From contig JBHGNT010000011.1 in NCBI GenBank assembly GCA_043228905.1, positions 15,128,001 through 15,192,000 on the forward strand: DNA of 64,000 bases. Direction: 5' to 3'. This DNA is from Azolla caroliniana. Its lineage: Eukaryota; Plantae; Polypodiophyta. The notes under the pieces are model-generated. The model was not told the origin of the DNA and did not search any database. It worked only from the letters and a program-made list of their open reading frames with translations. The position numbers and the translations under genes are program-made. This document shows, in pieces, positions 12,301 through 64,000 of this stretch (positions are counted from its first letter, which is position 1; each line of letters opens with the position of its first letter).

Positions 12301-12799
12301 TGCAAGCCGGATCTCGTAAGCTGGGGTCCGATGCAACCCCTTTGATTCGGGATTCGCTGCCCCCCGGTAAGGGCGCCGCAACTGGCCTCACCTTCCGGTC
12401 CACAGTCTTGTACTTGGTGCTAACTCGGGCCGTCCGTTCCGACTCGAGCCCTCGACCGAAGTCCGCGATGACTTCGTACATTTCTTCGGAACATACCGGT
12501 ATCGTCCGGTCTTCGATAAGGTCTTCTTCGACTACCCTCCCCAGCATTCCCAAGGTGTCGTCGAAGGAGACTGCCTCCACGGCTCCGTTGATTTCTTCGT
12601 CAGGGCCGAGAACTCCGCACGCCCGAAGTCTCCCCTCCGTCTTTGTTTTCTCTCGGCCGGCGATGCCGACCATCGTACATGCTCCGCTGTCGGAGAAGCA
12701 AAATTTCCTTCCTATTGTACACGGTTTTATCGTACAGATGTGGGGTTTTCCCGGAGCATCCGGACTGTCGCGGCCCCACGCCTTGGCAGTCCTCTCTAA
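9317..12799 (-). CDS. Pol ORF2 (RT, RNase H, integrase), probably entered by -1 frameshift near 12799 rather than at ATG 12673
   Basis: RT motifs DLYSGYDQF, LPQG and FLDD; RNase H TVDTS...KRELWGIV...ETDC; integrase HHCC (HDSPWAGH...CESC), DDE core and GPY motif WFGPY. The frame is open from the slippery site to 12673. Confidence 0.93.
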   Translation of the reverse strand, partial: LERTAKAWGRDSPDAPGKPHICTIKPCTIGRKFCFSDSGACTMVGIAGREKTKTEGRLRACGVLGPDEEINGAVEAVSFDDTLGMLGRVVEEDLIEDRTIPVCSEEMYEVIADFGRGLESERTARVSTKYKTVDRKVRPVAAPLPGGSESRIKGVASDPSLRDPACIGHTFTNETLRELKIGGGGFLLPVEEDRFRRMLGRHGKAFAFSPEEIGCVDPTIVEPMVIFTVPHVPWNLKPIPVPRAHIPKLMELLKQKVDMGILEPSSAPYSNRWFTVPKKNGSLRFIQDLQPVNRVTIRNAGIGPTIDKFAEAFAGRSIYSVGDLYSGYDQFQLAVESRDITTMRTPLGLVRMCTLPQGGTNSVAHMVNAMNKVLRDCIPDITMPFLDDIPIKGCPVEEKDETIGPDGCRRFVVTHIDDCEKVLQRLEDARLTFSGEKSAFGQSEIMVVGHLCGPYGRRPSPAKIEAISAMKPDCSSVTEVRRFLGACAFYHIWIPHYAHVAEPLYGLLKKGRRFEWLDKHTESVWKLKEALSAAPALRKAVYRKGTPVYITVDTSPTGIGWVVNQEDEDDNRFPIRFGAKVLSERQRGYAQVKRELWGIVSAVKADKDYLIGTEVIIETDCMPILGMVSGCATPDLAMLRWIAYIKSLDPEIRHISGKDNAMADMLSRARFDDEGGMVSEDEEVGVDFFETAYVTTDGTSTPALNDFDASKYDGEWLQIGGFLKTMTPDASWTKDEANRIRKKVYRFFLRDGYLWKHPRKRDSAPLRVVAMKEEHEELLTAYHDSPWAGHRGTWATFEKLKGKYWWPGQYQDVHRFVTTCESCQMHSIVRHRDELHPTYPPTIHFKWMVDLVTMPMGIGQMRYLVLAREDLTNQVEGRALPNKTTAAVCQFLIEDVICRYGCVGKIVADRGELDAEEAAELFDRLGVKLSLTTAYNPEANGKVERGHGPIVKALVRACGGRVGNWPRLLPYALWADRTTHSSVTGYMPTELMFGQKPIMPMERTISSWATVDWRDEMSREELLAARIRQLERRPEDVELVAEKLRVARKKNKARFDRTHRLRPKKIEEGDWVLVYDSSLDNQHRATRKFARRWFGPYVVRSANDNGTYHLAELDGTRMAIPVAGKRIKAFKKRHDDEPDPALLVSSDERSENEEEPTGEE

Positions 12800-12805
12800 A
12801 AATCC
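12740..12805 (-). promoter_or_regulatory. Predicted -1 programmed ribosomal frameshift signal
   Basis: G_GAT_TTT (12805-12799) lies directly before the ORF1 TAG. It is followed by a 6-nt spacer and the stem GGACTG/CAGTCC, whose loop GTGGGG is complementary to downstream CCCCAC. ORF2 is in the -1 frame. Confidence 0.8.
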
Positions 12806-14922
12806 TCTCGGTTTTCGGAACCGAGGGAGTCGCGGTTACGTTCGTGGTTCGGCCGTACCGTCAGAAACTGGACCGAATGGCGCCCGTCTTGGCTTTTGAC
12901 CCTCGCGTAGGCCGAACCATTGTCCAGCACCTTGGTCTCCATCCGCGCCGCCGTGATGTACGGCTCTCCCAGTATGACCGGATGCGAAGACGTCTCCTGC
13001 ACGAAGAAGTGCTGGTCAATCTCGACGTCGCCGATCTTGACTCGCACATTCGGACAGGCCCCGTGCAGCTCCTCGGTGGCGCGCGTTGCCGCCCTTATTT
13101 TCCACCCGTGCTTGGTGTTGATCGGCCATTTGCCCTTCTTATAGAAGTCCATGGACATCAAGTTGATCTCCGATCCGTGGTCCACCAAAGCTATCACCGG
13201 TTCCTGGACATCGCCGATCTTCACCGGGGTTTCCGTGGTCGCTCGGGCCCAGTGTAGTCTCGAATAGTGGCTTTCCGCCCACTCGTCTCCCAGCGCCATG
13301 TCGTCTAGGTGCGTCGTCCGCACTTCCACTGGTCTTTCCGGTTCTGTCTCCGTTGACAACCTCTTCCGTTTCACCAAGTCCACGATGGAGTCGTGGAACT
13401 CCTTCTTGGCGATTCCCAGCACCTCTCGTAACGACAGCTCCACCTTGCTGTCGAGGATCCGTTCCTCCAGGACCTTTCGTAAGTCCGTGGTCCTTTCTAT
13501 CTCCGTCCCCAGACGGTACCCGCCCTTCTGGGGTTTATCTTTCGTACCGGCCCCGCCGGCTTCGTCCCGTCGTGGCCCGGACCGGGTCTCGTATCGTTGT
13601 GAGGGCCCGGTCGTCCCGGGTTTCCCCACCTGCTTCTCTTCTACCAGAGCCTCGTAGTTCTGGCAAGCGGCTTCCACGAAGCCCGTCCTTTCCTCGACCG
13701 GGTCGCTCCACCCGGTCATCTCCCGAACCCGTTTCTCCGCGCGGTCCGATTCCTCCCCTTTCAGCCTTGCACCGGCAAGGCCTCCCAGCATCGTCGGCCA
13801 GAATCCGGCTTTGCTTTCCCTTCGGGCCTCGCCGCCCCCAACTCGAATGCCGGCCGACGCCGAGTAGTGGACAGTTTCCGCGTGTCGGGCCGCCGCCTCT
13901 TCCATCAACCTTTTCATACCACCTCGCCCGTCGTTTCGGCTCAGGGCCCTTCGGGTGTCGTTGGCATGCACCCGTCCTTCCCACAGGTACACCACCCTAT
14001 CCCTTAGCGCCTCCGCGAAGTCGCTGCAGTCCTTCCGAATGTGGCCGACTTCATCGCACCACATGCACCTGTTTCCTGCCGCCGGCCGTCGGTCACGAGC
14101 CGGTTCGCCACCTTCCCTTCGGGCTTGCGCGATTTGGAGGTCCTTTACCGCCCTCGTCAATTCCTCCAGCGCCGCTCCTCCGGTTGAGCCTCTGACTACG
14201 CCGGTCGAAGCCGAACCGGTTTCCAACCACTCTCGGGTCTCTTCCTTTCGCACCTGTGGCGCTGGTTCGAACTTCCTTGTTGCGACCGAGCCCGACCCGG
14301 TTACCCCGTTATCCGCCCATTCTCGCCGTTTGTCGAAACGGCCACAGACTTTCTTGACAGCCGCCCAGTCGGTAGTGAGCCCGTCTTTGGTTTCCAGCAA
14401 GAGGCCCACTTGCTCCCGATCCCGCTCGTCGACCGACTTGACAAACAGCAAGACCCGGCTCGTGTCCAGGATGGTTCGGTCGAGCGCCGAAAGGCGCGCA
14501 AAGTTTTCCTCGAACTCCCGGAGGAGTGCCGACGCGTTTCTTCCCTTCCCCGGGGACTCCACCCATTCCATGAACCTTCGCTTCGAAAGTCGGAGCGCGT
14601 CGTCCAGCCCGTATTTCTCTAGGAGCCGACCTTCGAACTCCTCCCAGGTACGGCTCTCCGCCCGCACCTCGAGCACCTCCGCATGGATGCTCGGCATTGC
14701 CACTCGGGGAAATCCGGCAAGACGCCTTTCTTCCGGAATGTCCCGCATCAGCATTTCTGCACCGTAGGACGCCAGATACTTCGTGGCATCCCTCCCATCG
14801 AACCGGCCGATCGTGCCGACGACCGCCTCGATAGCTCTGTCGAGGGCACCGGTGCCCTCGCGCGCGTTTACAATCCGATCCACGGCCGAAGCCATGGCCT
14901 CTGCAAGATCCGACCCCCTCAT
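12796..14922 (-). CDS. ORF1: Gag plus aspartic protease
   Basis: Zinc knuckle CMWCDEVGHIRKDC; protease ALVDHGSEINLM...VILGEPY. The first ATG is at 14922; the GTG at 14949 lies inside the PBS. Confidence 0.9.
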   Translation of the reverse strand: MRGSDLAEAMASAVDRIVNAREGTGALDRAIEAVVGTIGRFDGRDATKYLASYGAEMLMRDIPEERRLAGFPRVAMPSIHAEVLEVRAESRTWEEFEGRLLEKYGLDDALRLSKRRFMEWVESPGKGRNASALLREFEENFARLSALDRTILDTSRVLLFVKSVDERDREQVGLLLETKDGLTTDWAAVKKVCGRFDKRREWADNGVTGSGSVATRKFEPAPQVRKEETREWLETGSASTGVVRGSTGGAALEELTRAVKDLQIAQARREGGEPARDRRPAAGNRCMWCDEVGHIRKDCSDFAEALRDRVVYLWEGRVHANDTRRALSRNDGRGGMKRLMEEAAARHAETVHYSASAGIRVGGGEARRESKAGFWPTMLGGLAGARLKGEESDRAEKRVREMTGWSDPVEERTGFVEAACQNYEALVEEKQVGKPGTTGPSQRYETRSGPRRDEAGGAGTKDKPQKGGYRLGTEIERTTDLRKVLEERILDSKVELSLREVLGIAKKEFHDSIVDLVKRKRLSTETEPERPVEVRTTHLDDMALGDEWAESHYSRLHWARATTETPVKIGDVQEPVIALVDHGSEINLMSMDFYKKGKWPINTKHGWKIRAATRATEELHGACPNVRVKIGDVEIDQHFFVQETSSHPVILGEPYITAARMETKVLDNGSAYARVKSQDGRHSVQFLTVRPNHERNRDSLGSENREDF

Positions 14923-14944
14923 CTTCTGCTCTTCTGCCGCCTCT

Positions 14945-14962
14945 TTCACGTCGGGTTCACCA
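14945..14962 (-). promoter_or_regulatory. Primer binding site complementary to the 3' end of tRNA-Trp(CCA)
   Basis: The plus strand TTCACGTCGGGTTCACCA equals the last 18 nt, including CCA, of plant cytosolic tRNA-Trp as I recall it. It sits 4 nt from the 5' LTR. Confidence 0.85.
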
Positions 14963-14966
14963 AAGA

Positions 14967-15760
14967 TGTCTAGATATTACGCAAGTGCGTGTGGAAACGA
15001 GGCGGGACCGCGGGGGTCTCGAACCAAAGAGCAAGCGAGGGAGGAGAAAGAGGGAGAACCTGCTACGCAGGACCGGGGATACACAGGGACACGGCCCTTC
15101 AGCACAGAGAACGCGAACAGACACCGACACAGACAGATGCGAATGACTAAATATGTATATTAAGAAAAATGGCTAGCACGACTACAACCCCCGATGGGGC
15201 ACGGGTTGGTTACAACCGAACAGGCCGGCGAACAGATGCCGATGCCTGTTCGCTTCGACGCACAAAGGGGGGGTAGCAGGTCGGAGGTGCTGCCGGAAGC
15301 ACTCGGGCGTTCCTCAAAACAGCGCGAGCCTCCTCGGAACCCTGCACAGAAAGCTATGGAGCTCAAGAAGGAAGGAAACAGAGAGAGAAGCGTCCAGAAA
15401 CGGTCCGACAGCACTTCGTCCTCTCTGCGCGAGATGCCTGCAACAACTCTTTCCTGCTCTTATATAGGCCGACGAGCAGGCCGTCATGTCAGCTTTATTC
15501 CCTGTCCCTTTTGAACAGGGATCCGCTCCGTTCTTCACGCATCCGCGTAGTTACGCCGCCGACTCGTGCCGTCCCTTAGCTCGCGCGCACGACCGAAAAG
15601 ACTGTTCGCGCGGTCTTTGTCTCCACTCGTGTTAGGGCCCGTTCCTGCCGATTATCCTCCTAACTCGCCTCTATGTTCGACTTGGAGCGTGCGCGCGTGA
15701 GGAACCGGTTCCCACGCCTTGGTCTGCCGATTCCGCTTATGGACGGTTTTCTTCACGACA
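14967..15760 (-). repeat. 5' LTR of the gypsy element, with TATA box CCTATATAAG on minus at about 15459-15468
   Basis: 794-bp near-identical copy of 8452-9245, adjacent to the PBS. Confidence 0.96.
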
Positions 15761-15764
15761 CCGT

Positions 15765-18635: not shown

Positions 18636-21600
18636 ATGCCTCCACGTCGAGCAAAGAACTTTGACAGAATGGACTGTCCTATATCTCCAAGGTGATCTCT
18701 CTTTCTCTATCTGTCTGTATCTATTTGTTTTTATTTAGTTTTCACTTCAGGACGGGAGTTGACGGTCAAATCTAGAAAAGATTGCGCATTCCATGGAAGC
18801 TTTTGTCTTTTCTCTCAAGATTTATTATTGATGATGAATAGATCAGTGTAATGCCACACCATAACGTTTTAAACAGGAAAATATACCATCATTATATGTG
18901 GTAGGTAAATTCTAGCACTCAATGAAAATATATCTGGCTTTTGTGTATGGATGGCATATGGTTGAGAAGAAAGTTGAATTCTCAACACTTGATGAGTGAG
19001 TAAACAAATATACTTACATTGGATTTTTAACATACTCATGTACTTTTAAGATAACAAATGAATACATGTTTGTATTGCATGTGTTAGTATTTACTATGAG
19101 ATTTTTGAACGTTTGTTAACAATGTGAGTGTTCAGTAAGGTTGTTTAATAAACATCATAAAAAAAGTTCTTTTTCTTGCAGTCTAACCAACCAGAAGAGC
19201 CCTGCCAATACTTCCTATATACAACCTGAGACTCCAGCCACTATGGTGAACACAAATTTAGTAGGAACCAGCGAAAGAGAGTTGAGGAAGAGACCACCTC
19301 CACCACCAGGTATGTGTCAGAGTTTTGAGTGTTTTACGTTGTTACTCTTGTAAATAGAATTGTAAATGTTAACGAAAAATCGTTAGGAAATGTTTTGAAC
19401 TAGGCTATATTTTGATTTTGGCACTCTGGCAGTTTCAGATGTTCAGCAAAACAACGGAAGAAGGACTAGCTTGAGAGCGAAAGGGAAGGCGCAGAGTAAA
19501 CCTCAAGATCATCAGGTGGCAGAATCAATATCAAAATTTGATAATGATGTAAAGGAAGAGAATCATCAACAATCAACTAAGGTTGTTAGTCTCATCCAGT
19601 ATTCAAGCAGAAGAATAGGTCAGGGGCGTCCTCCGATTGCTCCGAGTCAAGTGCCTCAGAGTCCTTCATTAGAGAAATTTAGTGGTAAACACCTTGTTTC
19701 TGCACAAATACTACCGTCAGAAGAGAATATGTTTCAGAAGCAAACACCGGGAAATAGGAACATTGTTACTTTGGTGATGGAGAATACGGAGACTCCAGTA
19801 ACAGCAGTAATGAAAAACAATCTTGCTGCTGTAAGATCATCTACACGCAATGCACGTGCTCCCATGACAGAAGTGGTGACGAATGGTTCAATCCGTCCAG
19901 TGAGATCATCTACTCGTATCAAGAAAGCTGATCTTAATGAAGAAGAAGCTTTAGTTGTGTGTGAACCAAAGAAATCAACTGTAGTGGCTTCAAAGAGGAA
20001 TTCAGGTTCAGAAAAGCTGCAACCAACTACAGCAAAAAGAGCTAAGAATGATTGCAAAGGAAGTTCTGACAAAGATGTCCTCCCCACAGAAGAAGAAGCT
20101 CTAGTTGTGAGTGAACTGAAGAAATCAACTGTAGTGGCTTCAAAGAGGAATACAGCTTCAGAAAAGCTGCAACCAACTACAGCAAAAAGAGGTAAGAAAG
20201 ATTGCAAAGGAAGTTCTGACAAAGATCCCCTCCCCACAGAAGAAGAAGCTCTAGTTGTGAGTGAACTGAAGAAATCAACTGTAGTGGCTTTAAAGAGGAA
20301 TTCAGCTTCAGAAAAGCTGCAATCAACTACAGCAAAAAGAGCTAAGAAAGATTGCAAAGGAGGTTCTGACAAAGATGTCCTCCCCACACCAATTATTCCC
20401 TCAGGTACCAAAAGAGGGAGGAGCTTGAGCACTTCGAAGTCTCTGGAAATACTCAGTGTTCAAAGTGATAATCCATCACCGAAAGATGAGGGAGTTAGTC
20501 AGCCTATTAGGAAAAGAGGTCGAAGATGCAATTCAACCAAGTCAGTTGAATCAGTCAACATTGAAGAGAACATGGACATTCAAAACCAAATCGTAATGAA
20601 GTCCATTGAAAATATTAAAGATCTCAAAGAAAGAATCGAGGAGAAGATGGAGGTTGCTGCTCAACCCAAACGAAGAAGACCTGCCAAAACTTTGACAAAG
20701 ATGACCGAAGGAACGAAGCATTTAAAAGTTACGATGGAGTCAACATCCTTGAGAGACCTACCCTTAGGAGAAAGCCCTCCTCAGTCGTTGATAGATCTCT
20801 CTAGTAATGAATGTGAACATGGAATCAATGCAAGTGATAGTAAAGACGACACACAAATTTGCACTACTTTAGATACTAAAGTCAGGTCGACAGCTCAAAA
20901 AAGAGGGGAAAAAAACGTCAACAAGAAAGCTGCATCTAGAACAAGTACCCAAACAAACAAGAAAGCAGACTCTTCTGCTAGTGTGGTTGATACTGTGACT
21001 GTGCCTTTGGCCTCATTGGGAGAAATGGAACCTTTGACACAGCCATCTGATGTGATAATTATACCTGCTGCGATGAAAAAAGTTAACAAGAAACCTTCAT
21101 CAAGATTGACCACCCGAGCTACAAGAAAAAACGCGGACTCTTCTATTAGCCTGGTGGATACCATACTTTCAACGAATCCTCTTGAAGTATCAAATACCTC
21201 AGCTGCTTTGCCCCCTACTTTGGATACGTTTCTGTTGCATACAATTGGAAATGATGAAAACTCCTCCCATCCAAATAGCGATGAGATGGCCCAATCACCT
21301 ATTGAACTATTGAAACAGAAAATACCCAAAAAAATGACAATTACTGAAGGAAGAAACACTAAGCAAAGGACCTCGTCAAAAGCTGCCCAGAAGGCACCGC
21401 CACTGCCATCTGTGGCAGAAGATCAGCTGGATGAGCTGCAGACATCACTAACCATGGATGAACTTAAGAATACTCAGAAAGCAGATGGAATACTCAATTC
21501 TAAGACACAAATATCAATAGCCATGGATGAGCTTGATAATGCTCAGAATGCAGATGAAAAATTCAATTCAAACGTGCAAACTGGAGGAAAGAAAGGTGTG

Positions 21601-21909
21601 ACAAAGAAGAGATCTCTTCAAGAAAATGTTCTAAAAACGAAGAGGTTTAAAAAGAGCACTGAGATGTCATCTGCAAGAACCCCTAATTCCACACATACAA
21701 TCACAAAGGAGAGAGCAAATGTGAAGAGCAGCGCTTCAGCTACGAAGCATAGTGGTGATTGGGATGCTAACGAAATTACCAATACAGGAGGGTGTAAATT
21801 AAGGAATGATATATTGAAGACCCGAGGACAAGGAAAAGCTCCGAGGAACAGGATGCTTGAATTTGATGCTTTACCAGTACGATTTGGGTTGGGAATAAGT
21901 GGATTGTAG
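18636..21909 (+). CDS. Uncharacterised K/S/T-rich, probably disordered nuclear protein, about 886 aa; join(18636..18691,19182..19309,19433..21909)
   Basis: ATG in AAAATGC context. Two GT-AG introns have compatible phases (2 then 1) and join into the 812-aa ORF. Basic clusters KRGRS and RKRGRR. No domain recognised. Confidence 0.75.
19939..20388 (+). repeat. Coding tandem repeat, 3 x 150 bp (50 aa)
   Basis: EEEALVV.E.KKSTVVA.KRN..SEKLQ.TTAKR.K.DCKG.SDKD.LPT starts at 19939, 20089 and 20239. Confidence 0.95.
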
Positions 21910-39483: not shown

Positions 39484-41190
39484 TCACTTGCCATCCGACG
39501 AACTTTCACCGATGAGCATCAAAGACTGCTTTAATTTCATGATTTCAGTGGAAAGCTTACGCCGAGCTCCGACTGCGCTTACGCCCATCTCCTTAAGGTC
39601 ATCCATGGTGAGAAAAGGCAATACATCATGTGTGACTTCATGGTGCTCAAACATGGCAGTGTATTTCTCGAGACCAATGCTGTTCATCCAGTTTCTCACC
39701 TTATTGTCAACTGATTTGAGGGCACCCACTTCCCACACCGGAAGTCGGATTCGCAATTCTTGGGCGTCCACGCCGCCGGCCGTCGAGGGCGCCCGTTTCT
39801 TGTCCTCTTCAAATTTGGCTGAAACAGGAGCTGCTTGGAAAGAATCCATTCTCTTCATTGTGGTTTGCTTTTTGGGTTGCTTTCTAGCTTGCTTTTTGGG
39901 AGGGATATTCTGCAGGCCCTTAGGAGAGCCACTGTCGAGGCTGGATGCAATGGGGTGGGTATTGAAAATGGGTGGGGGCAGTGGCTGTTGGATTTTCACT
40001 TGTTTATCGGTGTCCGAGAGACCATAAACGCATCCATCGGCAGCTTCTAAGAAGCCATCTGCAACCCCAGTCATGGCCTTATGCATCCAACCATTACCAT
40101 TACCATTATCAATCCCATTACCATTACCAATCCTATTACCATTACCATTACCATTATCAATCCCATTCCCTTCATGATGAGGATGTGGATGATGATGATG
40201 GCCAAGACTATGTGGGTGACCACCACCGTTCCCCTCAGAATGATGAAATGGGCGATCGGCATGACCTTCAGAATGATATGGCCGAATGTTAACTTCATAC
40301 AGGCGAGCACTATGGGCTTCGGAATGATGTGAGCGACTGTTATTTTCACGTGGGCGATTGTAGATACCTTCTGAGAGGTATGGGCGACGAGGGTTAGATC
40401 CGTGTGGCCCAGCTTTCAAACGATGTGGGCGAATATCGCCCTTCCTTGGGGAAGGATTAGATTCATTTCGAAAACTGTTTCCTTCATGTGGGCGATGAGT
40501 ATTCCCTTCGAATTTGGCGGTTTCTTCATGTGGCCCATGAATTCTCCCTTCAGAATGAGCGGTTTCTTCATGTGGGCGATGGCCTTTCCCTTCAAAACGA
40601 GTGGTTTCTGCATGTGGACTACGGGTTCTGCCTTCAGAGCGAAGGGTTTTCTCTTCGAATCCTGTGTTTTCTGTATGTGGGCGATAGTTTTTCCCGTCTG
40701 AATAGTCACTTCCTTGAGGTTTCATGGAGAGCTTGGACGTAATCACCTTTGTGCTACCATAGCCACGTTTAGCTGGGCGCCCAGCCCTCTTCATAGCAGA
40801 GGAATTCGAAACACCGAGAGTAGAAACATTACCATATCTATCATTATTGCCAAATTTGGAAGAGATCTTGGGGCGTTTAATGGCGGGCTTACCTGAAGAC
40901 GACAACTTTCCTGCTGAGGCTTTAATTCCTTTCCTGTCTAGGAAATAGTCCACAACAGTGGCGAGGCTGTCTGATCCAATCTCGTTAAGGCGAACGTTGG
41001 GTCGCCTCTGCCGTTTGGAGTAATTCTTACTGATTGTTGCAGAAATCAATGACTCAATTGATGGCGAAATTGTGGCTAAAGTTGGGGGAGATGGATTCGG
41101 CGGAAGAGATTCTTCTCCATCTTCTTGATGAGGATGATAATGTTGCGATTCAATTGTTTCCCCCTCCATTTCTGCTTGAGAGAGAGACAT
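39484..41190 (-). CDS. Sterile alpha motif (SAM) domain protein, about 568 aa, single coding exon
   Basis: C-terminal SAM domain VRNWMNSIGLEKYTAMFEHHEVTHDVLPFLTMDDLKEMGVSAVGARRKL and the N-terminal SKRQRRPNVRL motif of plant SAM proteins. Start is ATG 41190 or 41169. Confidence 0.88.
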   Translation of the reverse strand: MSLSQAEMEGETIESQHYHPHQEDGEESLPPNPSPPTLATISPSIESLISATISKNYSKRQRRPNVRLNEIGSDSLATVVDYFLDRKGIKASAGKLSSSGKPAIKRPKISSKFGNNDRYGNVSTLGVSNSSAMKRAGRPAKRGYGSTKVITSKLSMKPQGSDYSDGKNYRPHTENTGFEEKTLRSEGRTRSPHAETTRFEGKGHRPHEETAHSEGRIHGPHEETAKFEGNTHRPHEGNSFRNESNPSPRKGDIRPHRLKAGPHGSNPRRPYLSEGIYNRPRENNSRSHHSEAHSARLYEVNIRPYHSEGHADRPFHHSEGNGGGHPHSLGHHHHPHPHHEGNGIDNGNGNGNRIGNGNGIDNGNGNGWMHKAMTGVADGFLEAADGCVYGLSDTDKQVKIQQPLPPPIFNTHPIASSLDSGSPKGLQNIPPKKQARKQPKKQTTMKRMDSFQAAPVSAKFEEDKKRAPSTAGGVDAQELRIRLPVWEVGALKSVDNKVRNWMNSIGLEKYTAMFEHHEVTHDVLPFLTMDDLKEMGVSAVGARRKLSTEIMKLKQSLMLIGESSSDGK

Positions 41191-41607
41191 ACACACACAG
41201 AGAGACAGACAGACAGGGTTAGAAGAAGAAGAAGAAGAAGAAGAAGAAGAAGAAATAGTTGCAAAGTGAATGAATGAAAGCAGAAAGCTTGGCTCTAGGA
41301 AAGAAGAAGAGATTTGAGCACAATGAAGAAGAAAGAAAGAAAGGAAGAAAGAAAGAAAGAAGAAAGAAGAGATTTTGAGCACCAAATTGTTGGATTATAT
41401 GCAGTTATGTGCTGAAGAAGATGGAGGAGGAATTGTATGGAAAAAATCATTGGAAAAACAAACTAAGAAGAGAATTGAATGTTGTTGTTATGTTTTAGTG
41501 TTAATCTCTACTAAAAATCCTTGATGCTTTATTAATTAATTATGTAATGTTGTGAGGTGGGGGGAGAAGAAGGAGCATTCATTCATCCATCCATCCATCC
41601 ATCCATC

Positions 41608-44964: not shown

Positions 44965-46590
44965 TTAGAGGTCTGCTTCAGGTACAATTACAGGTCCATA
45001 TTCATCGTTGTCATTCTCACTCTTTTCTAGATCAAAAGTCCAGCCGAGAAACTTTTCCAATATGCTTTTCAGACGTCTTGTGTGATTCAGAAGGTCTCCA
45101 TCTACAGGGCGAGCCTCCATTACGAGTCTATAAAATTCTTTGAAATTAATTCTAAGAAAGTTATCATCAGAAAACCATGTAGCATCTAAGATTGCCATCT
45201 CAGCATTGGCATCCGTCCCAGGTTTCAGACCTACCATAAGCTGAAAGCACACAATGTCGAGAAAGCTCACAAATAATCGTGTCCGGCTCGAGAGTGGAGC
45301 CTCATCACAACTAAACATTAAGCATACTATGGATTTCCATTGGCTAAATGATTCCAGAGATTGCCCCATCAAAAAGGCGATGAAGGAAAACTCAAGCTCT
45401 CCAAGTAAGAGGTCTTCTGATCCTTTGTACTGATTGATCAGCAATCTCTCTAGTTCCAAACTCTTATCAATGTTCAGCATGGTGAGCTGAGAACCACTGA
45501 GGCCTGTTCGTTTAACAAGGTGAGGGAACTTCGTATAGAAGCACCTTCCAGAGGGTTTTTTAGCAAGATCAGAATACATTTTCCCACATTTTATGTGTTT
45601 CTCACCTACGTTTCTGACATTATCAACATCCATTGTTTCATTAACAAGATCAGTACGTACTTTTTGTGTTACCACATATTGCTCATCCATTTTCCGTTCT
45701 ATAATAGGCATGTTTTTACCACTATCGACATCCATGGTTTCTTTATCGAGATCAACATCCATGGTTTCTTTATCGAGATCAACATCCATGGTTTCTTTAA
45801 CAAGATCAACGTCCATTTCTCCAGCTATTCTATGCATGTTTTCGCTATTATCAACATCTGTGGCAATTTGTCCGGCTGTGATTCCATCCTTTTGTTGCTC
45901 TTCACCTATGTTTAGATCTTGTACACACACCCCATTCAAATTGCGTTTCTTCACACTTTCCCTGGTTTTAAACAATTCTCGGCTATTTTGGAGATGTTGT
46001 TGCAACTGTTTCTCAGCTCGGGTTTGAGCTTGTGCATCTGAGAACTCGGCCTCATGAATCACAGATATATCAGCGTCAACAGGCTCAAATTTTCCAATAA
46101 CTTCTGCATCAATATGACCTGATATCCGTTTCCAAGACTTGTAATGATGAACATCATAAGCACCCAGAAACTGATCAAATTCAAGCTTTTTCACACTGAC
46201 CCTATACCTTTCTTCTTCGTCTTCATCGCATAGTTTCACGAGCATTTCCAACTGCGGGTCCCATCGTCGTACAATGATGTCGGCAGGATTGGGATGAATG
46301 AAAAAACCTGTGAAAAATGATTGTGATGTATTCTCGTGTTGATTTGTGGTGCTATAGTAGATGAAGTGCGGTCCGGGGGGTATCATTTTGATGCCTTTGA
46401 AGAGGGGTCCAACCGATAAGGTCTGGAGATCGAATCCCAGAAGAGTTCCCGGGGGCATGTCGAGGATCAATAGAGATGCCCCTTGCTTCACTAGCTCTAG
46501 GGCTTCTGTAGGGTTCAATTTCACAGAGTAAGGCGGCATACCTTGCTCTTTCCCTGGCGATGGTGATGGTGATGGTGATGCAGAAGCCAT
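44965..46590 (-). CDS. AAR2: AAR2 homolog (U5 snRNP assembly factor), about 541 aa, single coding exon
   Basis: Motifs VGPLFKGIKMIPPGPHFIYYS, EFDQFLGAYD, LLLGELEFSFIAFLMGQSLESFSQWK, DDNFL and terminal DEYGPVIV. Confidence 0.93.
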   Translation of the reverse strand: MASASPSPSPSPGKEQGMPPYSVKLNPTEALELVKQGASLLILDMPPGTLLGFDLQTLSVGPLFKGIKMIPPGPHFIYYSTTNQHENTSQSFFTGFFIHPNPADIIVRRWDPQLEMLVKLCDEDEEERYRVSVKKLEFDQFLGAYDVHHYKSWKRISGHIDAEVIGKFEPVDADISVIHEAEFSDAQAQTRAEKQLQQHLQNSRELFKTRESVKKRNLNGVCVQDLNIGEEQQKDGITAGQIATDVDNSENMHRIAGEMDVDLVKETMDVDLDKETMDVDLDKETMDVDSGKNMPIIERKMDEQYVVTQKVRTDLVNETMDVDNVRNVGEKHIKCGKMYSDLAKKPSGRCFYTKFPHLVKRTGLSGSQLTMLNIDKSLELERLLINQYKGSEDLLLGELEFSFIAFLMGQSLESFSQWKSIVCLMFSCDEAPLSSRTRLFVSFLDIVCFQLMVGLKPGTDANAEMAILDATWFSDDNFLRINFKEFYRLVMEARPVDGDLLNHTRRLKSILEKFLGWTFDLEKSENDNDEYGPVIVPEADL

Positions 46591-48839
46591 ATCTCCCCGG
46601 TTCTCTCTGTTTCTGTAATGCTTTGCTTTGAAGAACAAGAATTAAAACCCTTTATTCTTACAATACATAGATACATATATATACGAAAAATACATACATA
46701 CATACATACATATACATACGAAAAATACATACATACCTATGAAAAATACATACATACATACACATACATGATCATGGATTTGTTCGTAGAATTGAATTGC
46801 ACAAGCCATTACTGGCGACTATTACTAATCCTTGTACTTGCTAACTCACATGCTCATCTGAAACATAAAATTTCTTCTAGCGAACACTTTCGAACTTGTA
46901 ATGTTCAATGAAGCATTCTCATGTTTCCTATTCTACATATGAAGGTTTTTCTCTCTCCGTTGTAAAATCCACTTTAATGATAAATTATATAGGGCTACAA
47001 CAAGACTTTAGGGTAATTCGGCCTATGATATTTCGTGAGACTTTTTGTTCTCCTCATTCTTTGTCTTATCTTGTTCCACTGATCTAGTCAAGGCGTTGGA
47101 TTTATTCGGTGGAACAATCCACTAAATCATTGTCTAGCATTTCCCTACTCCCTTTGGATTTACCCTTCATATATTTATCGCTAGTTACACCATCACCATC
47201 TGTCTCTTTGATTTTATAGTGAGTTGGGCCCAAAGCTTTGGTGATGGTTTTCATCCCATCAACCAGATTGTCCCAAGTCATCAGTGTGTTGACCCCAAGT
47301 GTTTGCACCAAGTGAGCATCTTTGTACTATCGGAGTTTTGCCTCCACACACCGTAAGCTACGGGGGTCTAGACTGCCATATACTCTATTGATGTTGAGTT
47401 GAGTGAGAGTGGTTGTCAAGCACTCTCAACCCACTAACCTCACTTATGCTAATCTTGCAAACTTTCACTCACCTATATTAAAAGCACTAACCTCCCAAGA
47501 AGCCCACTAATACATAAACTAGTAACCACAAGCAAAAGAACTAAACATGATTTAATTAATGGAAGCACACACAACATAGATAAAAGGAGTGATTAAGATT
47601 TGGCTAAGTAACACTTAACACTAATCATTCATCTGACAACAAGTATATGAGCGAGAGAGGTCTAACTTAGGTTACAAGGGGACTAACACTAGAGATTCAA
47701 GAAGTAGCTAAAAAGGGCACAACGTCATCTAAAGGTGTGTTACACCAAAGTTTACATCTTCATTTTCGTTGAAGTTCTCTCTCCTTGTTGAGATCATATA
47801 CATAGGGGTCCAAACCTCCATATACCCGATGAACCGAATGAGAGTAATCATCAAGCACTCTTGACAGGCTAACCTTGCAAACTCACATTCACACTTCCTT
47901 AAGACAACTATGATTGACAAGCTAGCTAATGCCTCACGAAGATGCAAGTGTAAAGCATTCTAATACATAAATAAAAGATATTACATGTGATAGTATTGAG
48001 CACACTTCAATTAAATAAAGTGGTCTACAAAACACATACAAAAAGAAGAGTGAGTAGGATTTGCCTAAGTAACCCTTAACCATCACCACTCAACTCACAA
48101 GTTGTTGAAGAGGATTTTTGTGGGCATTGTAGGGAGTGGTTGGTGTAGTGAAGGTAGGGGTGGGGCGATTGATGTTGGTGAAGTGGAGGGAGTGAGGAGG
48201 TTGGTGTAGGTAGACACATTGATACATCAACAAGCGGGCAACAATGGGCATTGGAAGCATTGTATGTTCAGAGGTGGGGGGGGGGGGGGGGGGGAGAAGG
48301 GGATAGTGAGCATTTGGTATGTGTTTTGATTGTGGAGGATTACATTGACTCTAAATCTCATTGGTAAGAAGAGGGAATATGGTAACCACGTCTATAGGCC
48401 ATTCATGTGGTGCCTAGTGGGGAATTGATCAAGGTCAAAGGTGAGACTTCAACTAGGTTGGTCAGACATTTGGAAGTATGGAGAATCAAATGGAGGGGAG
48501 AAGCTAGAGCAACATCAAGAAGCAACGATCACAATTAAAGGACCAATTAAGTCCACCCAAATTTAAAGCATCATGGCTCTAGTATGTTGATTGTAGAAAA
48601 AGTTGATAAACTTGACAAATAAAAAAGGAGGGTTGATCGAAACTTCGTTGGATTGAGGTGATGAGGGGAGAAGGTAACATCCAACTAGTTAACACTCAGT
48701 AGTTGGCTTGACACAAAGTACAAAGGAACTTAACTCACAAGTTGCCTCGACACAATGCACGAAAACTGAAACCACGAGAGTGCTCAACCATCCAACACAG
48801 TGCATGAGACAAAGCATACAAAGAGCATGTTGTCGTGAT

Positions 48840-53997: not shown

Positions 53998-54400
53998 TGT
54001 AAACAATTACTTGTGGAAGCGTTAGAAAACAGAGAAGGCAGAGAATACACAGACAGAGTACACGGGAGAGACAGAGAGAGCAGAACCTCAAAGCTATATT
54101 CAAAAACGATAAAAACACTCTGTCACTACAACTGTGCTCAGTAGCACTATTTATACAAGTCCTCGTGGGACTGACAGAAGTACAAAATACTTCAATGCTC
54201 ACACGAGCATCTAACACTTACTACGAGACTATAACTGCCTAGTAGTCTAAACTAATACTAGGCTTCCGGTTACCGATTGGATCCGACTAACCGGCTCCCC
54301 TACTCACCAGCTCGGTTGCTCACCGGCTTACCGATCCGTCTCGCTCACCGGCTCAGGCTTATCCAGCCAATCCGGCTCCAGTTGAGCTTGCCGCTCAACA
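53998..54400 (-). repeat. Copia 3' LTR, 403 bp
   Basis: TGTAAAC...CTCAACA, adjacent to the PPT. Confidence 0.92.
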
Positions 54401-55182
54401 CTCCCCCTCAAGCTCAACTTGAGGTTGGATCCTAGTGTCAACCTCTATGGCAGTCGGTTCTTCCAACCGACTTCTCCTGGCGTCGCTCCGCCTTGCTTGC
54501 GCTCCTCATTCGGTCCGGTTCCGTTTGCCGCGACCCTTCTGGTTCTGCGCGCCCTGACCTTCTCGGTCGGCATGTTTGCTCAATAGGCCCCTCTTAGCTC
54601 CTTCACTGCTATGACTCCGGCGCTTGCCGATCCGTCGGTTCCTCCGCGATGGCATCGACTTCCGCTGCATCCGTGTCTGCCCGGCCTCTAGTTGATTCGG
54701 TTCATCCGGATCTGTATGATGATCCGAATCGGATGTCCTCGATTCATTCCAGCTCTTGTCAGAGTCGATATCCTCCAACTCGTCTTTCGGTTTAAGGCCC
54801 TTCACAACATCAGACCACGTCTGGGTCTTGGCCTTGCTTCCATCCTCGGCTTTCTTCCGGTTCTTCCCTTACCAGTGTCGGCAACAGTCTCTTTGCCTTT
54901 GCCCGTTCCGGTGTCTTTGCCCGTCCTCCCCCTCAAGTGTGGCACGTCGAGATGCTAAACACCAAGCATTTTGGTGAAGTGCTGCAACTTGTCCGATCCG
55001 AGCGGCTTGGTGAAGATGTCGGCAACTTGCCGATCCGTGTATACCGAAGTTCGACCTCACCGCTCAGGACACGCTCACGCACGAAGTGATAGTGCACTTC
55101 TATGTGCTTTGTGCGAGCATGGAATACGGGCTTCTTGGCGAGTTGCATGCTGCTTATGTTGTTGAGTAGACTCGAATCAGGG

Positions 55183-58100
55183 TCAATACCTCGATCCGTA
55201 GGTCTTGTAGTAGTCATCGAGGCCAAATGGCTTCACAGGTGGCAACGGTCGCGCCCGGTACTCAGCCTTAGTGCTTGACAGAGCCACTGTTGGCTGCTTT
55301 TTGCTGCTCCACGCAACAGCTGCGCTCCCAAGGGAAAACATAAAACCGGAGGTCAATCGGCGATCTGATGCATCTCCGGCCCAATCGGCATCTGTGTAAC
55401 GGACCAGCTCTTCGGGTATACCACGCCGGTATAACAGGCCCCGGTCCTTCATGCCGCTTACATATCGTAGTATCCATTGCGCGCACTGAAGGTGCTCCAC
55501 GGTCGGCTTCTGCATGAACTGACTTATCATTCCAACCGGATAGCTGATGTCGGGCCGTGTGATAGTCAAGTAAATAAGGCTTCCGACGATTTGTCGGAAC
55601 TGTTTCTCATTGTAGGCCGGTCCGGAGTTAGGACGAAGCTTCTGGTTCCGATCTAAGGGTCTAGAGAGAGGTCGGCATTCTGTCATGCCGAACTTGTACA
55701 ACATATTTAAGACGTAATGTCGTTGTGAGAGAAATATGCCGTCGGGGGTTCGAATTACCTCGATCCCAAGAAAATAATGAAGGTCCCCTAGATCCTTCAT
55801 CTCAAATGCGTTCGACAATTGGGACTTGACGCGGTTGATTTCTGGAAGACCCGGTCCGATGATGACTAGATCATCAACATACAACAATATACATACCGGA
55901 CCGGCTGAGCCTTGCCGGATGAACAATGAAGAGTCCGATTTGGAGGCCACAAACCCCATCTTATGCAACCGGTGCGTGATCTTCGCATTCCAAGCTCGAG
56001 GGGCTTGCTTCAGGCCGTACAACGACTTCTTCAGCCGGCATACCGCTGACTTGTTCATCTCTGATTGAAAACCGGGAGGTTGATTCATAAAGACTTCTTC
56101 TTCAAGATCACCTTGAAGAAATGCATTCTTCACATCCATCTGATGAAGATGCCACCCCCTTGCCGCAGCAACCGCCAGCACCACTCGAACCGTTGTCATC
56201 TTCGCTACTGGAGCGAAGGTCTCGTCGTAGTCGATTCTGTGGGTTTGCGCGTATCCCTTTGCCACTAATCGGGCTTTATACCGGTTAACAGAACCGTCGG
56301 CATTGTACTGTACCTTGTATATCCACTTGCATTCGATCGGTTTACAAGACGAGGAGGGTCAACTAGGTCCCATGTCTTGTTGACATCAAGTGCCCGCATT
56401 TCTTCCTCCATAGCGGCATGCCAATTTGCGTCCTTGGCCGCTTCTACGTAGCTCTCCGGCTCACGCACTTCCGCCACCTTAGTCATGTATGCATAGTGAT
56501 GCGCCATGTACTCATTGTACCCGTACCGCTTGACGGGATCCTTCTGGCGGGTGGACCGGCGTAACTCACCGTTACCCGGTTTGAGGCCCTTCTTGGCCGG
56601 TTCGGTTTTTGTTGCCGAAGATCCGCCTTTCTCCTTGTCGGAGTCGGATGCACACTGATCCGACTCATCGCTGTCGGTTTCGAATTCCGGCATCTTCTTC
56701 TTCCCCTTCTCTTTGCGCGTGAACCGTCGCCTCGGTTCCTTGTGCGGGGAGTGCACGACAGAGTCTCCACTACTCGCCGGTTCCTCATCGGACTGGTCAG
56801 ATCGACCTTGTCTCTCGTTCGGCCCGCTCAACCGGAACGATTCCGGACTCTCATCCTGAGTCCACGCTTCATCATCCTCTACCTGGGCCGGTTCAAGCTC
56901 ACTAGCCTCATCCACTAGCATCGGGTTAGATTCGGAAGTCGGAGCCGGTAAGGAGTACCACGATGCCGATTCATCGAACTCGACATCTCGACTAACTTGG
57001 ACCTGCTTTGTCCGGGGGTTATAACACTTATAACCCTTTTGCTCTTGAGCATAGCCGATTAGGATGCATTTTTCCGATTTTGCATCCAACTTCCTCCGCT
57101 TCTCATCCGGTACATGCACATATGCAATGCTACTGAAGATCTTAAGGTGTCTCAAATTCATCTTGCGCCCGAAATATAGCTCGTGAGCTGACACCTTGTC
57201 ACCGATCCGGTTCTGGATGTAGACAGCTGTTTGGACTGCCTCCGCCCAGTAGAATTTGGGCATGCTCTTCTCCTCCAGCATTGCCCTTGCCACATCGATA
57301 AGCGATCGGTTCTTCCTTTCGGCAACACCGTTCTGTTGCGGTGTGTATCTGCAGCTAAACTCTCGCCGAATTCCCTTTTGCTGCAGATAGCTATTGAATT
57401 GGCCGGAAAAGTACTCTTTTCCTCCATCCGACCGCAGGCATTTGATCTTCCTCTCCGATTCCCGTTCCACCATGCTTTGGAGGCTTCGGAAACACTCGAA
57501 GACTTCACTCTTCCGCTCAATGAGGTAGATCCATGTGTGCCTCGTATAGTTGTCGATGAAGGAGACGAAATATCGACTCCCGCCAAGACTAACATTCTGT
57601 GCCGGTCCCCACACATCCGAATGGATAAGGTCGAGCTTGTTACGGCTCCAGTTACGTTCATAAGCTTCCCCTTCTGTCCGACGTGGCTCAAAGGGACTTC
57701 TCCGATGTGCACGATTGGGTGAGGAGTGTCGTCTCCGGTTTCGACTACTCCTGGTTGATCCGGTTTCTCCAAAAAGGAGAACCACTCTTTGTGGCTCGTT
57801 ATGTGGTTCGACGCACCAGAATCAACATACCACACTTCCTCCGATTTGGAAGTGGTTTTCTTCATCGAGTTCGCCTCGTGCTTCATCACCATGGCCCGTT
57901 ACCGTTCTTGCATCCTCCCGATCCCTTCGCGAAGTGCGAGCCGTGACAGCCATCCTTGTTGGCCTTGCCGGATCCGGACTTGTCTGAATCGGTGCGTTTT
58001 CTCCAACACTCACTTTCTCTGTGACCCTTTTTGCCATAGTACCAGCATTCCGTTGCAGATTTGTCTTGCCGGCCTCCGACACCGCCTTGACTCCCCCTGC

Positions 58101-58728
58101 CTGTGGAAGTCCTGGAACTGCTGTCGGCACGTTCTCTGTGCCTTCGTTCTTGCTCTTGCCGGCCGCCTCCATTGCGTGCCGACTCACCTCATCCACCACG
58201 CCCAGGGGACCGATCCGCCTCCGTGTACAACATCCGACTGTTAGTGGGTGCGCTAGTTGACGCACCTGCGTGGTTCTCCTCTACAAGGAGCATCGACTGT
58301 AAGTCGAAAAATGACGGCGTATTCTCCCTTATACACACCGCCGTTTGGAACGCTCTGAACTTAGACGCCAGACCCCGAAGACAGACATGTACCATCTCGT
58401 CTTCCTCTATGGTAACGTTGATGGAGGCAAGTGAGTTGTAGAACTCTTTGATCCGGGCCGTGTAATCCGCCATCGACATGTCCTTCTGTCGGACATTGCT
58501 CAACTCCTGTCAGAGTTGCAGCTTCTGGGCTGTAATGCTCGCAGCGAAAAACTTCTTCAGGTTTCCCCAAGCCTCCTTTGGCATCTTGGCGTCTCGGATG
58601 TGGCTCAGCAACTGGTCTCTGACACTGGACGCGAAGCAGTACATCACTCTGCTTGCTGATTGTTCCCACACTAGGAAATCCTTATGTGCCACATCAGGTG
58701 TTGTTTCGTTGGCTCCTTCGACGACCAA
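55183..58728 (-). pseudogene. Copia gag-pol broken into several frames
   Basis: ORF pieces 58510-58728 and 58189-58503 (gag), 57158-57892 (PR), 56265-57785 (INT) and 55183-56265 (RT/RH). Confidence 0.88.
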
Positions 58729-58883
58729 GATGCGTAGTTGGATCTGTCGAGTTTCTCCACAGGGAGCGAGCTAGCCATCCCTCTATCCATCACTTCTCTG
58801 TCTGCTATTCTTACGACCTGTTAGGGTTTGCTTTCAAGCGTTTGTCGGTTGCAGAGGTTCTCAACCCTCGCGCTTTGATACCA

Positions 58884-59298
58884 TGTAAATAATTACTTGC
58901 GGAAGCGTTAGAAAACAGAGAAGGCAGAGAATACACAGAGTACACGGGAGAGACAGAGAGACCAGAACCTCAAAACAATATTCAAAAACGATAAAAACAC
59001 TCTGTCACTACAACTGTGCTCAGTAGCACTATTTATACAAGTACTCGTGGGACTGACAGAAGTACCACATACTTCAATGCTCACACGAGCATCTGACACT
59101 TACTACGAGACTATAACTGCCTAGTAGTCTAAACTAATACTAGGCTTCTGGTTACCGATTGGATCCGGCTAACCAGCTCCCTAGCTCATCGGCTCTATTG
59201 CTTGCCGGCTCGGTTGCTCACCGGCTTACCGATCCGTCTCGCTCACCGGCTCAGGCTTATCCAGCCAATCCGGCTCCAGTTGAGCTTGCTGCTCAACA
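58884..59298 (-). repeat. Copia 5' LTR, 415 bp
   Basis: TGTAAAT...CTCAACA, adjacent to the PBS. Differs from the 3' LTR by more than a dozen substitutions and indels. Confidence 0.92.
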
Positions 59299-62200: not shown

Positions 62201-64000
62201 TCTAGTCCTCACTCTTCTCCTAAAAAAGCTTCCATAAAATAATATTAACTCCCTCTTCGTGCATGTCTAGACAACAGTACTAAGTCAACAAGAACAACAA
62301 CTTTTCAACATAACAATACTAAGTCAAGCACCCCCCCTTTCCAACAAGAAGAAGAAGCAAAGAATATTCAAGCATAGGTCTACATGTTCAAGATTCAAGC
62401 ATAACTCAACCCTCAAATGAACACTTCATAAAAACAACAAGAACAAGAACATGACATAATAGTTTGGTCCAAGAAAAACAAATCATAACATGTCATCACA
62501 AAATTACTAAATCTCGACTCGCAAATGAACATTGAGAAAAACAATTGCAGCAACATCAACAAAAACAACAAGAACATGACATAATAGTCCAGATCAAGAA
62601 CAAAACACTTCTTGGACATGTCATCACAGCAGTATGAAATGAGGCACCCCTTTTCCGAACCTGAACAAGTACAAGATTCAATCTAGCTACATATATAGGG
62701 TTTCATATCTCGACTCTCGGATGAACACTGGAGAAAACAAGAACAAGAACAAGAACAATAGATAGAACGAAGTGCAATCTTGAACAACAACAAACATACT
62801 AAACAAGAACATGTTGAGGAACATAACATATACATAGCATCATATCATCATAGCACCCCCTTTCCATATGTCAACATGTACAAGAATCAACCATATACAT
62901 GTACAAGACTCTCAAATGAACACATTTGAAAAACAAGACAACAAACATGGTCAACAAGAGCATGTTGAGGAAGATAAAATATAAATAGCATTATGATATC
63001 ATCATAACACCCCCTTACCATATGTGAACATGTACAAGACTCGAGCATATTTCTGTACAAGAATTGTTGAGCGGCAAGCTCAACTGGATGCGGGTCGGCT
63101 GGATAAGCTTGAGCCGGATCGGCATCCAGAAGGATGAAGCCGAATCGGTGAGACAGAGAGACCAGAACCTCAAAACTATATTCAAAAACGATAAAAACAC
63201 TCTGTCACTACAACTGTGCTCAGTAGCACTATTTATACAAGTACTCGTGGGACTGACAGAAGTACCACATACTTCAATGCTCACACGAGCATCTGACACT
63301 TACTACGAGACTATAACTGCCTAGTAGTCTAAACTAATACTAGGCTTCTGGTTACCGATTGGATCCGGCTAACCAGCTCCCTAGCTCATCGGCTCTATTG
63401 CTTGCCGGCTCGGTTGCTCACCGGCTTACCGATCCGTCTCGCTCACCGGCTCAGGCTTATCCAGCCAATCCGGCTCCAGTTGAGCTTGCTGCTCAACAAC
63501 AATGATACAGAGCCGAAAACATTGCTAATAGCAAAAGAGGTGTAGTCGGCCGACAAGACAAGGCTCACCGAACTATTACTTCAATACAGAGATGCGTTTG
63601 CATGTTCGTTCAAAGATATGAAGGGACTAGATCCGGCCTTCTATCAGCATTAGATTAATCTACACAAAGATGCAAAGCTAGTACAACAATGGCGGTATTG
63701 CCTAAATCCGAATTATGTAGTAAAGGTCAAGAGGAAATCAAAAAATTGTTGTGAGTTAGCTTTATACGACTGGTCAAGAAGGCTACTTGGTTGAGCTCGA
63801 TAGTCGTGATGCCCAAAAAGAATGTCAAGGTTAGGGTGTTTGTGGACTATCGGAAGCTGAATGTTGCAACGGTGACAGATGCATTTCCGTTACCTTTCGT
63901 AGATGGAGTCCTTGATGCAGTGGTTGGCCATGAAATATACAATTTCCTCGATGGATTCACTGGATATAATCAGATTCGGATGCATCTCGACGACCAGGAG
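58950..64000 (+). repeat. Tandem array with a 2100-bp unit (58950-61049, 61050-63149, 63150 to window end)
   Basis: AGACAGAGAGACCAGAACCTC at 58951, 61051 and 63151. Identical ORFs are offset by exactly 2100 (59591/61691, 60915/63015). Confidence 0.96.

Follow-up and report, generated by a model that had tools for sequence, protein, structure and literature searches.

A conserved slippery site and predicted pseudoknot at the protease-reverse transcriptase boundary of a fern gypsy retrotransposon and its relatives

Results

A −1 reading frame behind a slippery heptamer

We analysed a 64,000-nucleotide stretch of the genome of the fern Azolla caroliniana (assembly GCA_043228905.1, contig JBHGNT010000011.1, positions 15,128,001 to 15,192,000 of the forward strand; hereafter "the window", with positions counted from its first letter), which carries on its minus strand an intact gypsy-type long terminal repeat (LTR) retrotransposon of 7309 bp (8452-15760). 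Its first open reading frame (ORF1) holds Gag and a predicted protease, and its second (ORF2, or pol) holds reverse transcriptase (RT), RNase H and integrase. Comparison with related elements makes it very probable that pol is expressed by a −1 ribosomal frameshift at a conserved slippery site that is followed by a predicted H-type pseudoknot. The evidence comprises two ORFs in a −1 register, a heptamer with a stop codon next to it, a 6-nt spacer, and stems that are both conserved, with compensatory changes, over about 29 element families.

ORF1 ends with GAG GAT TTT TAG, and the RT-RNase H-integrase frame lies at −1 relative to it and is open from 12835 to 9317. The slippery heptamer G_GAU_UUU, recognized from its sequence and its conservation in relatives, occupies 12799-12805 on the minus strand, as do all parts of the signal, and the UAG stop codon of ORF1 (12796-12798) lies directly 3′ of it, forming the first half of a 6-nt spacer (12798-12793). 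Alignment and RNAalifold place the 8-pair core of stem 1 beyond the spacer, with its 5′ arm at 12785-12792 and its 3′ arm at 12762-12769. The hairpin loop contains the 5′ strand of stem 2, GUGGGG (12774-12779), whose partner CCCCAC lies at 12740-12745; both strands were assigned by the loop-swap test and the tree described below. Between the stems runs a poorly conserved connecting loop of 16 nt (12746-12761), which contains a competing hairpin. A preliminary description of this DNA, made from the letters of the window, had already reported Gag and protease in ORF1, its terminal codons, the open −1 frame, the heptamer, the spacer and the loop pairing, all of which we recovered at the same positions. 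Stem 1 had been drawn as GGACUG/CAGUCC (12792-12787/12767-12762), which is present but too short, the core having 8 pairs (12792-12785/12769-12762).

Signals for −1 frameshifting consist of a slippery site, a spacer of 5-9 nt and a stimulatory structure (PMC5009743, in excerpt). The heptamer here is of the X_XXY_YYZ type, if the G_GA exception is allowed, and in frame with ORF1, and the spacer falls within the 5-9 nt range. The window holds a single instance of the combined pattern of heptamer, spacer and stem, and none of 100 shuffled sequences has it, although this test is weak in that the pattern was derived from this family. No Rfam family matched at the junction at E values up to 1.

Conservation of frame and heptamer among relatives

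Relatives of the element were taken from metagenome contigs as the best 80 of 175 matches. Two of these loci end within the protease and 12 lack the start of RT, leaving 66 that are informative for the junction. In 60 of the 66, pol is in the −1 frame and remains open upstream beyond the ORF1 stop; 2 have it open in the −2/+1 frame, and the other 4 are broken. The preliminary description had proposed that sister copies with protease and RT in one frame would expose a private indel, and an intact in-frame fusion was found in none of the 66 loci, the sole frame-0 case (L024) being degenerate and interrupted by stops. Protein matches behave in the same way. Among the best 120, all 83 that lie outside named gene models stop soon after the protease, 62 of them with xF at the very end and 16 with 5 further residues after xF. 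A separate protein search reaching down to about 32% identity returned the same ending, with F final in 32 of 52 short tails, and ORF1 proteins of moss, liverwort and fern carry this end signature as well. Contigs assembled from four DNA runs (5317, 6421, 7847 and 1364 placed) list a single indel over the 1-kb stretch, which is a 9-mer that keeps the frame and is located off the site. That the shift in the window copy is a private indel or an assembly error in one dead copy, an idea favoured only by the prior expectation that a plant LTR copy is usually broken, is therefore refuted by the shared register and the shared protein ending, and the copy itself has LTRs that are 99.5% alike and two intact ORFs; the chance of this explanation is negligible.

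A site of the form G_G(A/G/U)U_UU(U/C) is present in all 62 open loci, as GGAUUUU (54), GGAUUUC (4), GGUUUUU (2), GGGUUUU (1) or GGUUUUC (1), so that the heptamer passes the conservation check that had been suggested for it. These loci form 29 families at 90% identity, and their protease DNA diverges to a pairwise identity of 55%. Heptamer base 1, which takes the wobble position of the codon that comes before, is G in all 29 families, across 12 different codons, and GAC replaces GAU at the site in none, against an upstream background of 147 GAT and 89 GAC. A stop codon follows the heptamer directly in 23 of the 29 families, and all three stop codons occur. Because the pol frame closes just upstream of the site, at a median of 7 codons (minimum 2), the point of entry is pinned to the heptamer. 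The linker between this site and RT contains no stops in the pol frame, a figure that is circular, compared with 215 and 169 in the other two frames. Conservation by column is 0.96 for the heptamer, 0.82-0.84 for the stem strands that were counted and 0.40-0.61 for flanks, spacer and loops.

One sub-type (L053:6528, L069:935 and L077:1569) has its ORF1 stop five codons past the heptamer, within stem 1, and its ORF1 protein ends in xF-xxx-P-L. Two Physcomitrium patens proteins (P0039 and P0052) and one from Adiantum (P0037) have the same ending. The shared ending suggests that stem 1 is conserved in those moss and fern elements too.

Compensatory changes in both stems of the predicted pseudoknot

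To examine the structure, we used an alignment (A3) of 30 rows comprising the window copy and 29 of the 62 open loci, approximately one per family, from which broken and truncated loci were excluded. All 30 rows are gap-free from the heptamer through stem 1, and the spacer measures 6 nt in all 28 rows whose pol frame is −1. RNAalifold, unprompted, returned the 8-pair core of stem 1 with two-sided changes in 6 of the 8 pairs, and 234 of the 240 cells of the core can pair. When stem 1 is taken as 12 pairs, 84% of positions are paired, versus 75% in shuffled alignments (0 of 500 shuffles did as well) and 26-40% when the strands are slid against each other. This extension in register to 12 pairs is complete in some families and interrupted by an internal loop in others, its pairs 28-30 forming in 13-16 of the 30 rows. 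The window copy itself has a G-C pair at a position where most rows have A-U, and a relative (L002) carries the G.U intermediate.

Stem 2 joins the hairpin loop to a segment about 11-16 nt past stem 1. Changes in the loop are matched by changes in its partner between families, as in GCGAGA/UCUCGC, CAAGG/CCUUG and UGAGGG/CCCUCA. Each row's own pairing scored 15.0, compared with 12.96 +/- 0.35 when loops were swapped between rows (0 of 100,000 swaps; this test ignores relatedness) and 10.2 for shuffled sequence (0 of 1,000). Several of the two-sided changes in stems 1 and 2 recur on a protease tree, with two to four origins each, so the covariation that had been proposed as a check is found in both stems, as is characteristic of an H-type pseudoknot, with the register of stem 2 fitted.

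The competing CCGGA/UCCGG hairpin that had been noted over the 3′ arm is indeed present in the window. As a conserved switch it was rejected, because at least 5 bp form in only 9 of 30 rows, and it is not a feature of the family.

Transcriptional slippage on the U run, by which some transcripts would gain a base, could draw on the 5-U run that stands behind GGA in most families. However, the GGAUUUC families have only 3 U, the covarying pseudoknot downstream would be unaccounted for, and RNA reads list no indel at the site, at low depth. We consider this explanation barely credible.

Proposed mechanism and competing routes to pol

In the proposed −1 frameshift, a ribosome with GAU in its P site and UUU in its A site would meet stem 1 at the mRNA entry. 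The A-site tRNA-Phe could then re-pair fully on the −1-frame UUU, and the P-site tRNA could re-pair partly on GGA, with the adjacent stop codon perhaps raising efficiency as it does in pea enation mosaic virus 2 (PEMV2). For most ribosomes translation would end behind Gag-protease, with a minority reading on into RT-RNase H-integrase, such that protease would equal capsid in number and Pol would be made at a low, fixed ratio. In wheat-germ extract, the G_GAU_UUU of PEMV2 directs −1 shifting that requires the U run, depends moderately on P-site re-pairing and becomes more efficient when a stop is nearby (PMC4737148, in excerpt). The preliminary description had ascribed the heptamer to dianthoviruses such as red clover necrotic mosaic virus (RCNMV), and G_GA-type sites do occur there, but they are found in some umbraviruses too (PMC5009743, in excerpt).

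Several observations weigh against this interpretation. The frameshift is inferred from sequence. Folded alone, the window copy is no more stable than its shuffles (z −1.19), and its stem 1 is interrupted by a C.A mismatch and by a 2x2 internal loop; structural support comes from the conservation of the signal in relatives, the single-copy fold being unremarkable. The register of stem 2 was fitted for each sequence, which favours its pairing. A single record-name prefix is shared by 77 of the 80 loci, many of which are probably collapsed repeats, so they do not represent 80 independent hosts. The protease assignment depends on a sub-threshold Pfam match and Atlas features, and the AlphaFold model of the protease has a predicted local distance difference test value of 35. 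One distant singleton (P0056; 45% protease identity) carries protease and RT in one protein of 1374 amino acids and could belong to a sister lineage with one ORF or be a mutated copy. Finally, 21 of 37 named moss, fern and liverwort gene models continue past the protease, some into RT, and an in-frame AUG precedes RT in 29 of 29 families. Because the lengths of the joins vary, the run-on models are probably false introns that bridge the frameshift.

The same gene models, many of which join ORF1 to pol, are what speaks for splicing, in which the junction would be removed in the manner of Ogre elements and the conserved structure would regulate the process. However, the ORFs overlap with no spacer between them, 62 of 66 loci have a pol frame without interruption over the junction, and GT(A/G) donor positions are common to at most 9 of the 29 families. 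Three poly(A) RNA runs from one related species cover all 30 bins and hence the whole element, with a depth of about 7-17 at the junction, and neither a joint nor an indel falls there among those listed (15 of 48 joints and 12 of 15 indels). A search of sequencing runs turned up no RNA run containing the exact stretch, a result that weighs neither way. The differing lengths of the gene-model joins also argue against a common intron. An Ogre-type spliced junction is thus not indicated, given the overlapping open frames, the lack of a shared donor and the lack of a listed RNA joint at this low depth, and we assign splicing only a slim chance.

Reinitiation or internal initiation at a linker AUG, with the stem-loop serving as a packaging or initiation signal, gains from the AUG found in every family 3-35 codons (mostly about 17) before the RT start, since its presence means that start-codon absence cannot be used to exclude this route. 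Nevertheless, initiation there would leave unexplained the fixed heptamer, the invariant wobble G and the fixed 6-nt spacing, as well as a frame that has no stop over the roughly 100 codons before the AUG and is closed only a short way 5′ of the heptamer. We therefore regard it as improbable.

A sub-clade with pol in the −2/+1 frame

The two loci with pol in the −2/+1 frame (L051:2835-2900 and L064:2497-2560) have the sequence AG_GUU_UUU, a 5-nt spacer and the same pseudoknot. They are 77.5% identical over 5.6 kb and form one clade with support of 100/100 on an RT tree of 24 of 31 candidate rows, in which the L053 row may be a pol ORF upstream of that junction. Their pol ORFs are intact (1181 codons in L051 and 1106 in L064), and the ORF1 of L051 contains one internal stop. 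Relative to the −1 rows, the spacer is one base shorter, and the pseudoknot is retained, with pol reading it in the same register. In the matching ORF1 protein cluster, the ending is shared by 6 of 6 members that reach the end, among 15 of 35 members listed.

Both loci thus carry an RG_GUU_UUU site in frame with ORF1 and the next ORF at −2, and RG_GUU_UUU is the −2 site of arteriviruses (PMC5644247 and PMC4937337, in excerpt). Shifting by −2 is optimal with a spacer 1-2 nt shorter than that for −1 (PMC3458567, in excerpt). After a −2 slip the A-site tRNA would re-pair on UUU in both loci, whereas clean +1 re-pairing is available only in L064. On these grounds the two loci are probably read by a −2 shift. 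Against it stand their single evolutionary origin, the fact that a +1 shift yields the same frame and a product differing by one residue, and the −1 shifting that occurs with 5-nt spacers in umbraviruses (PMC4737148, in excerpt). The broader history, in which a pseudoknot frameshift is ancient across the gypsy lineage of mosses, liverworts and ferns and one branch switched from −1 to −2 by losing a spacer base and gaining AG_GUU_UUU, seems to us somewhat better than an even bet.

The likeness to arterivirus nsp2TF lies in the AG_GUU_UUU sequence and the −2 position of the next ORF. The arterivirus signal differs in that a protein complex acts about 10 nt downstream without RNA structure, whereas a pseudoknot lies 5 nt downstream in the plant loci (PMC5644247 and PMC4937337, in excerpt).

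Structure, proteins and classification of the element

The element is bounded by two 794-bp LTRs with TG...CA ends, the 5′ LTR at 14967-15760 and the 3′ LTR at 8452-9245, and by copies of the target-site duplication ACGG, which fits NCGN, at 15761-15764 on its 5′ side and 8448-8451 on its 3′ side (all on the minus strand). We call it young and intact because the LTRs differ at 4 positions (99.5% alike), have TG...CA ends and are flanked on both sides by ACGG. The primer-binding site (14946-14962, minus) agrees with the Rfam RSV_PBS consensus at 16 of 17 bases, matching the core of that model although the whole model scores below the Rfam gathering score, and it recurs with at most 1 mismatch in 40 of the 80 related loci. 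We take this site, which resembles that of Rous sarcoma virus (RSV), to be of the tRNA-Trp type; RSV primes on tRNA-Trp. A purine-rich tract (9246-9258, minus) precedes the 3′ LTR.

ORF1 (12796-14922, minus) comprises 708 codons from its first ATG, within a stop-to-stop frame of 14976-12796, and is arranged as a capsid-like N terminus, a CCHC knuckle, DUF4100 and the protease. The approximate capsid-like domain (14323-14847, minus) corresponds to model residues 20-194, which align to the dArc, Arc, PEG10 and Ty3 capsids. Compared by VIA-align, the ORF1 model matched the dArc1 capsid best (Z 9.3, root mean square deviation 7.0, 157 aligned residues), followed by the Ty3, PEG10 and Arc capsids; Foldseek with the same model found nothing at E 0.001, and capsids nevertheless ranked at the top. 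The predicted aspartic protease (12967-13227, minus), with a D-H-G motif, matches Pfam Asp_protease_2 below the cut-off (E 0.006; 8 of 15 members), and the Atlas feature score between the ORF1 protease and Asp_protease_2 clusters is 0.96. Sequence searches against solved structures gave no significant match, and AlphaFold confidence is low for the protease part within the ORF1 model too.

The protease motif is D-H-G-S rather than D-T/S-G in 13 of the 14 ORF1 proteins that were aligned (about 13180-13170 in the window, minus). A weak protease produced in capsid-like amounts would suit the layout, an idea that we offer as no more than that. Atlas also hints at look-alikes in Basidiomycota.

ORF2 (9317-12835, minus) lies in the −1 frame, has 1160 codons past the shift site and encodes RT, RNase H and integrase behind a linker about 120 codons long. 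No chromodomain was matched in it at E 0.01. The LTRs with TG...CA ends, target duplication, primer-binding site and purine-rich tract, together with the domain order Gag-protease-RT-RNase H-integrase, place the element in Ty3/gypsy, the protease assignment being the weakest link.

Within REXdb, the marks of the Phygy clade are a 4-bp NCGN duplication and a tRNA-Trp primer-binding site, its ORF organisation being given as "ND" (PMC6317226, Additional file 5). The element has the 4-bp NCGN duplication and the tRNA-Trp-type site, its coding region fills the internal part with no extra ORFs, and it has no chromodomain match at the above threshold. These features, including the compact internal region, are common to Phygy and the element. 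Further likeness lies in the protease, which is 59-71% identical to P. patens gene models, and in the DUF4100 of Gag; the named relatives are P. patens, Adiantum nelumboides and Riccia sorocarpa. Phygy has been described as specific to P. patens and 7.7-10.0 kb in size (PMC6317226, in excerpt), whereas the element is 7309 bp (7.3 kb), resides in a fern and has a definable layout of GAG-PROT / −1 / RT-RH-INT. Because its size and host lie outside the published description, we name it only a Phygy-like non-chromovirus gypsy element, short of Phygy proper. An env ORF, as in alpharetroviruses, is absent, since only 71 bp separate pol from the 3′ LTR, and a scan of viral contigs found no relatives of the element.

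Other features of the window

Host genes in the window comprise SKIP/SNW (1971-3848), a SAM-domain protein (39484-41394), AAR2 (44965-46641) and a tRNA-Thr (6412-6485). The SKIP/SNW gene near the element is 80% identical to that of Adiantum and 66-74% identical to other named full-length plant matches, which points to a fern host, and the tRNA-Thr lies some 2 kb away from the element's 3′ end. An older copia element (53998-59298, minus), with LTRs about 91% alike, has integrase and RT in overlapping frames (56265-57821 and 55183-56358), an overlap that looks like ordinary decay. A tandem repeat at 58947-64000, with a 2100-bp unit 99.9% alike, begins inside the copia LTR. Finally, an open frame of 836 codons on the plus strand (19399-21909) contains three 150-bp repeats and has no Pfam match.

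Discussion

The organization of the element resembles that of RSV and the avian sarcoma and leukosis viruses, in which protease lies within the Gag ORF, pol is reached by a pseudoknot-stimulated −1 shift and the primer-binding site is nearly identical (PMC12789967 and PMC5009743, in excerpt). The preliminary description was right to draw this parallel with alpharetroviruses, as an analogy that turns on the protease being in the Gag ORF (PMC12789967, in excerpt). The RSV pseudoknot differs in having a third stem, and its protease has D-S-G where that of the element has D-H-G, according to the same excerpts. The element, moreover, is of the plant Metaviridae type and lacks env, such that the resemblance is not one of membership. 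The RSV heptamer is A_AAU_UUA, unlike the G_GAU_UUU of the element. With PEMV2 the element shares this heptamer, a stop close behind it and the use of plant ribosomes (PMC4737148, in excerpt). The signals of the umbravirus PEMV2 and the dianthovirus RCNMV differ, however, in using a bulged stem-loop with long-range pairing and a 5-nt spacer, whereas that of the element is predicted to be a local H-type pseudoknot behind 6 nt (PMC4737148, in excerpt).

Among plant elements, Ogre and Retand of the Tat clade are likewise non-chromovirus gypsy elements broken at the protease-RT boundary. Ogre has a spliced spacer there and Retand mostly a single stop codon, and neither is listed with overlapping frames at that boundary (REXdb Additional file 5). 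Tcn1/PpatensLTR2 and Selgy resemble the element as gypsy elements of seed-free plants with a frameshift-type two-ORF layout, but their break precedes the protease and Tcn1 is a chromovirus (bioRxiv 2022.12.06.519325, in excerpt). The overlapping frames recorded for plants in REXdb (Tcn1, Selgy and some SIRE) all precede the protease, and between protease and RT it records a spacer or single stop (PMC6317226, Additional file 5); an earlier survey is summarized as having found only two types of plant elements with separate frames, both +1 (PMC5009743, in excerpt). The preliminary description had thus overstated the rarity of the position, which Ogre and Retand share, although an overlapping-frame pseudoknot junction is indeed missing from the REXdb summary table. 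Our literature search, which lay outside the recoding survey of Gao et al. 2003 and REXdb Additional files 1 and 3, found no description of this signal. Because Ogre and Retand also break at this boundary, what appears to be new is the mechanism there, the position being already known; a pseudoknot-stimulated −1 shift is in itself of a well-known kind.

Control of the Gag:Pol ratio is poorly known for plant LTR retrotransposons, most of which are reported to have a single ORF and no recoding. The element would add a third solution at the protease-RT boundary, beside the intron and the stop codon, and its signal, 66 nt long, is precise enough to be tested in a seed-free plant lineage. The introns that gene predictors seem to invent in such elements would be explained as well. 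The −1 and −2/+1 families form a natural series on one pseudoknot, in which the effect of a spacer base on the direction of slippage could be tested in plant ribosomes. If the −2 reading is true, the sub-clade would be a natural case of a plant retroelement in which RNA structure drives a −2 frameshift, and evolution would thereby have confirmed the spacer-tension model. If the −1 frameshift operates as proposed, this lineage would have an alpharetrovirus-like ratio of Gag-protease to Pol.

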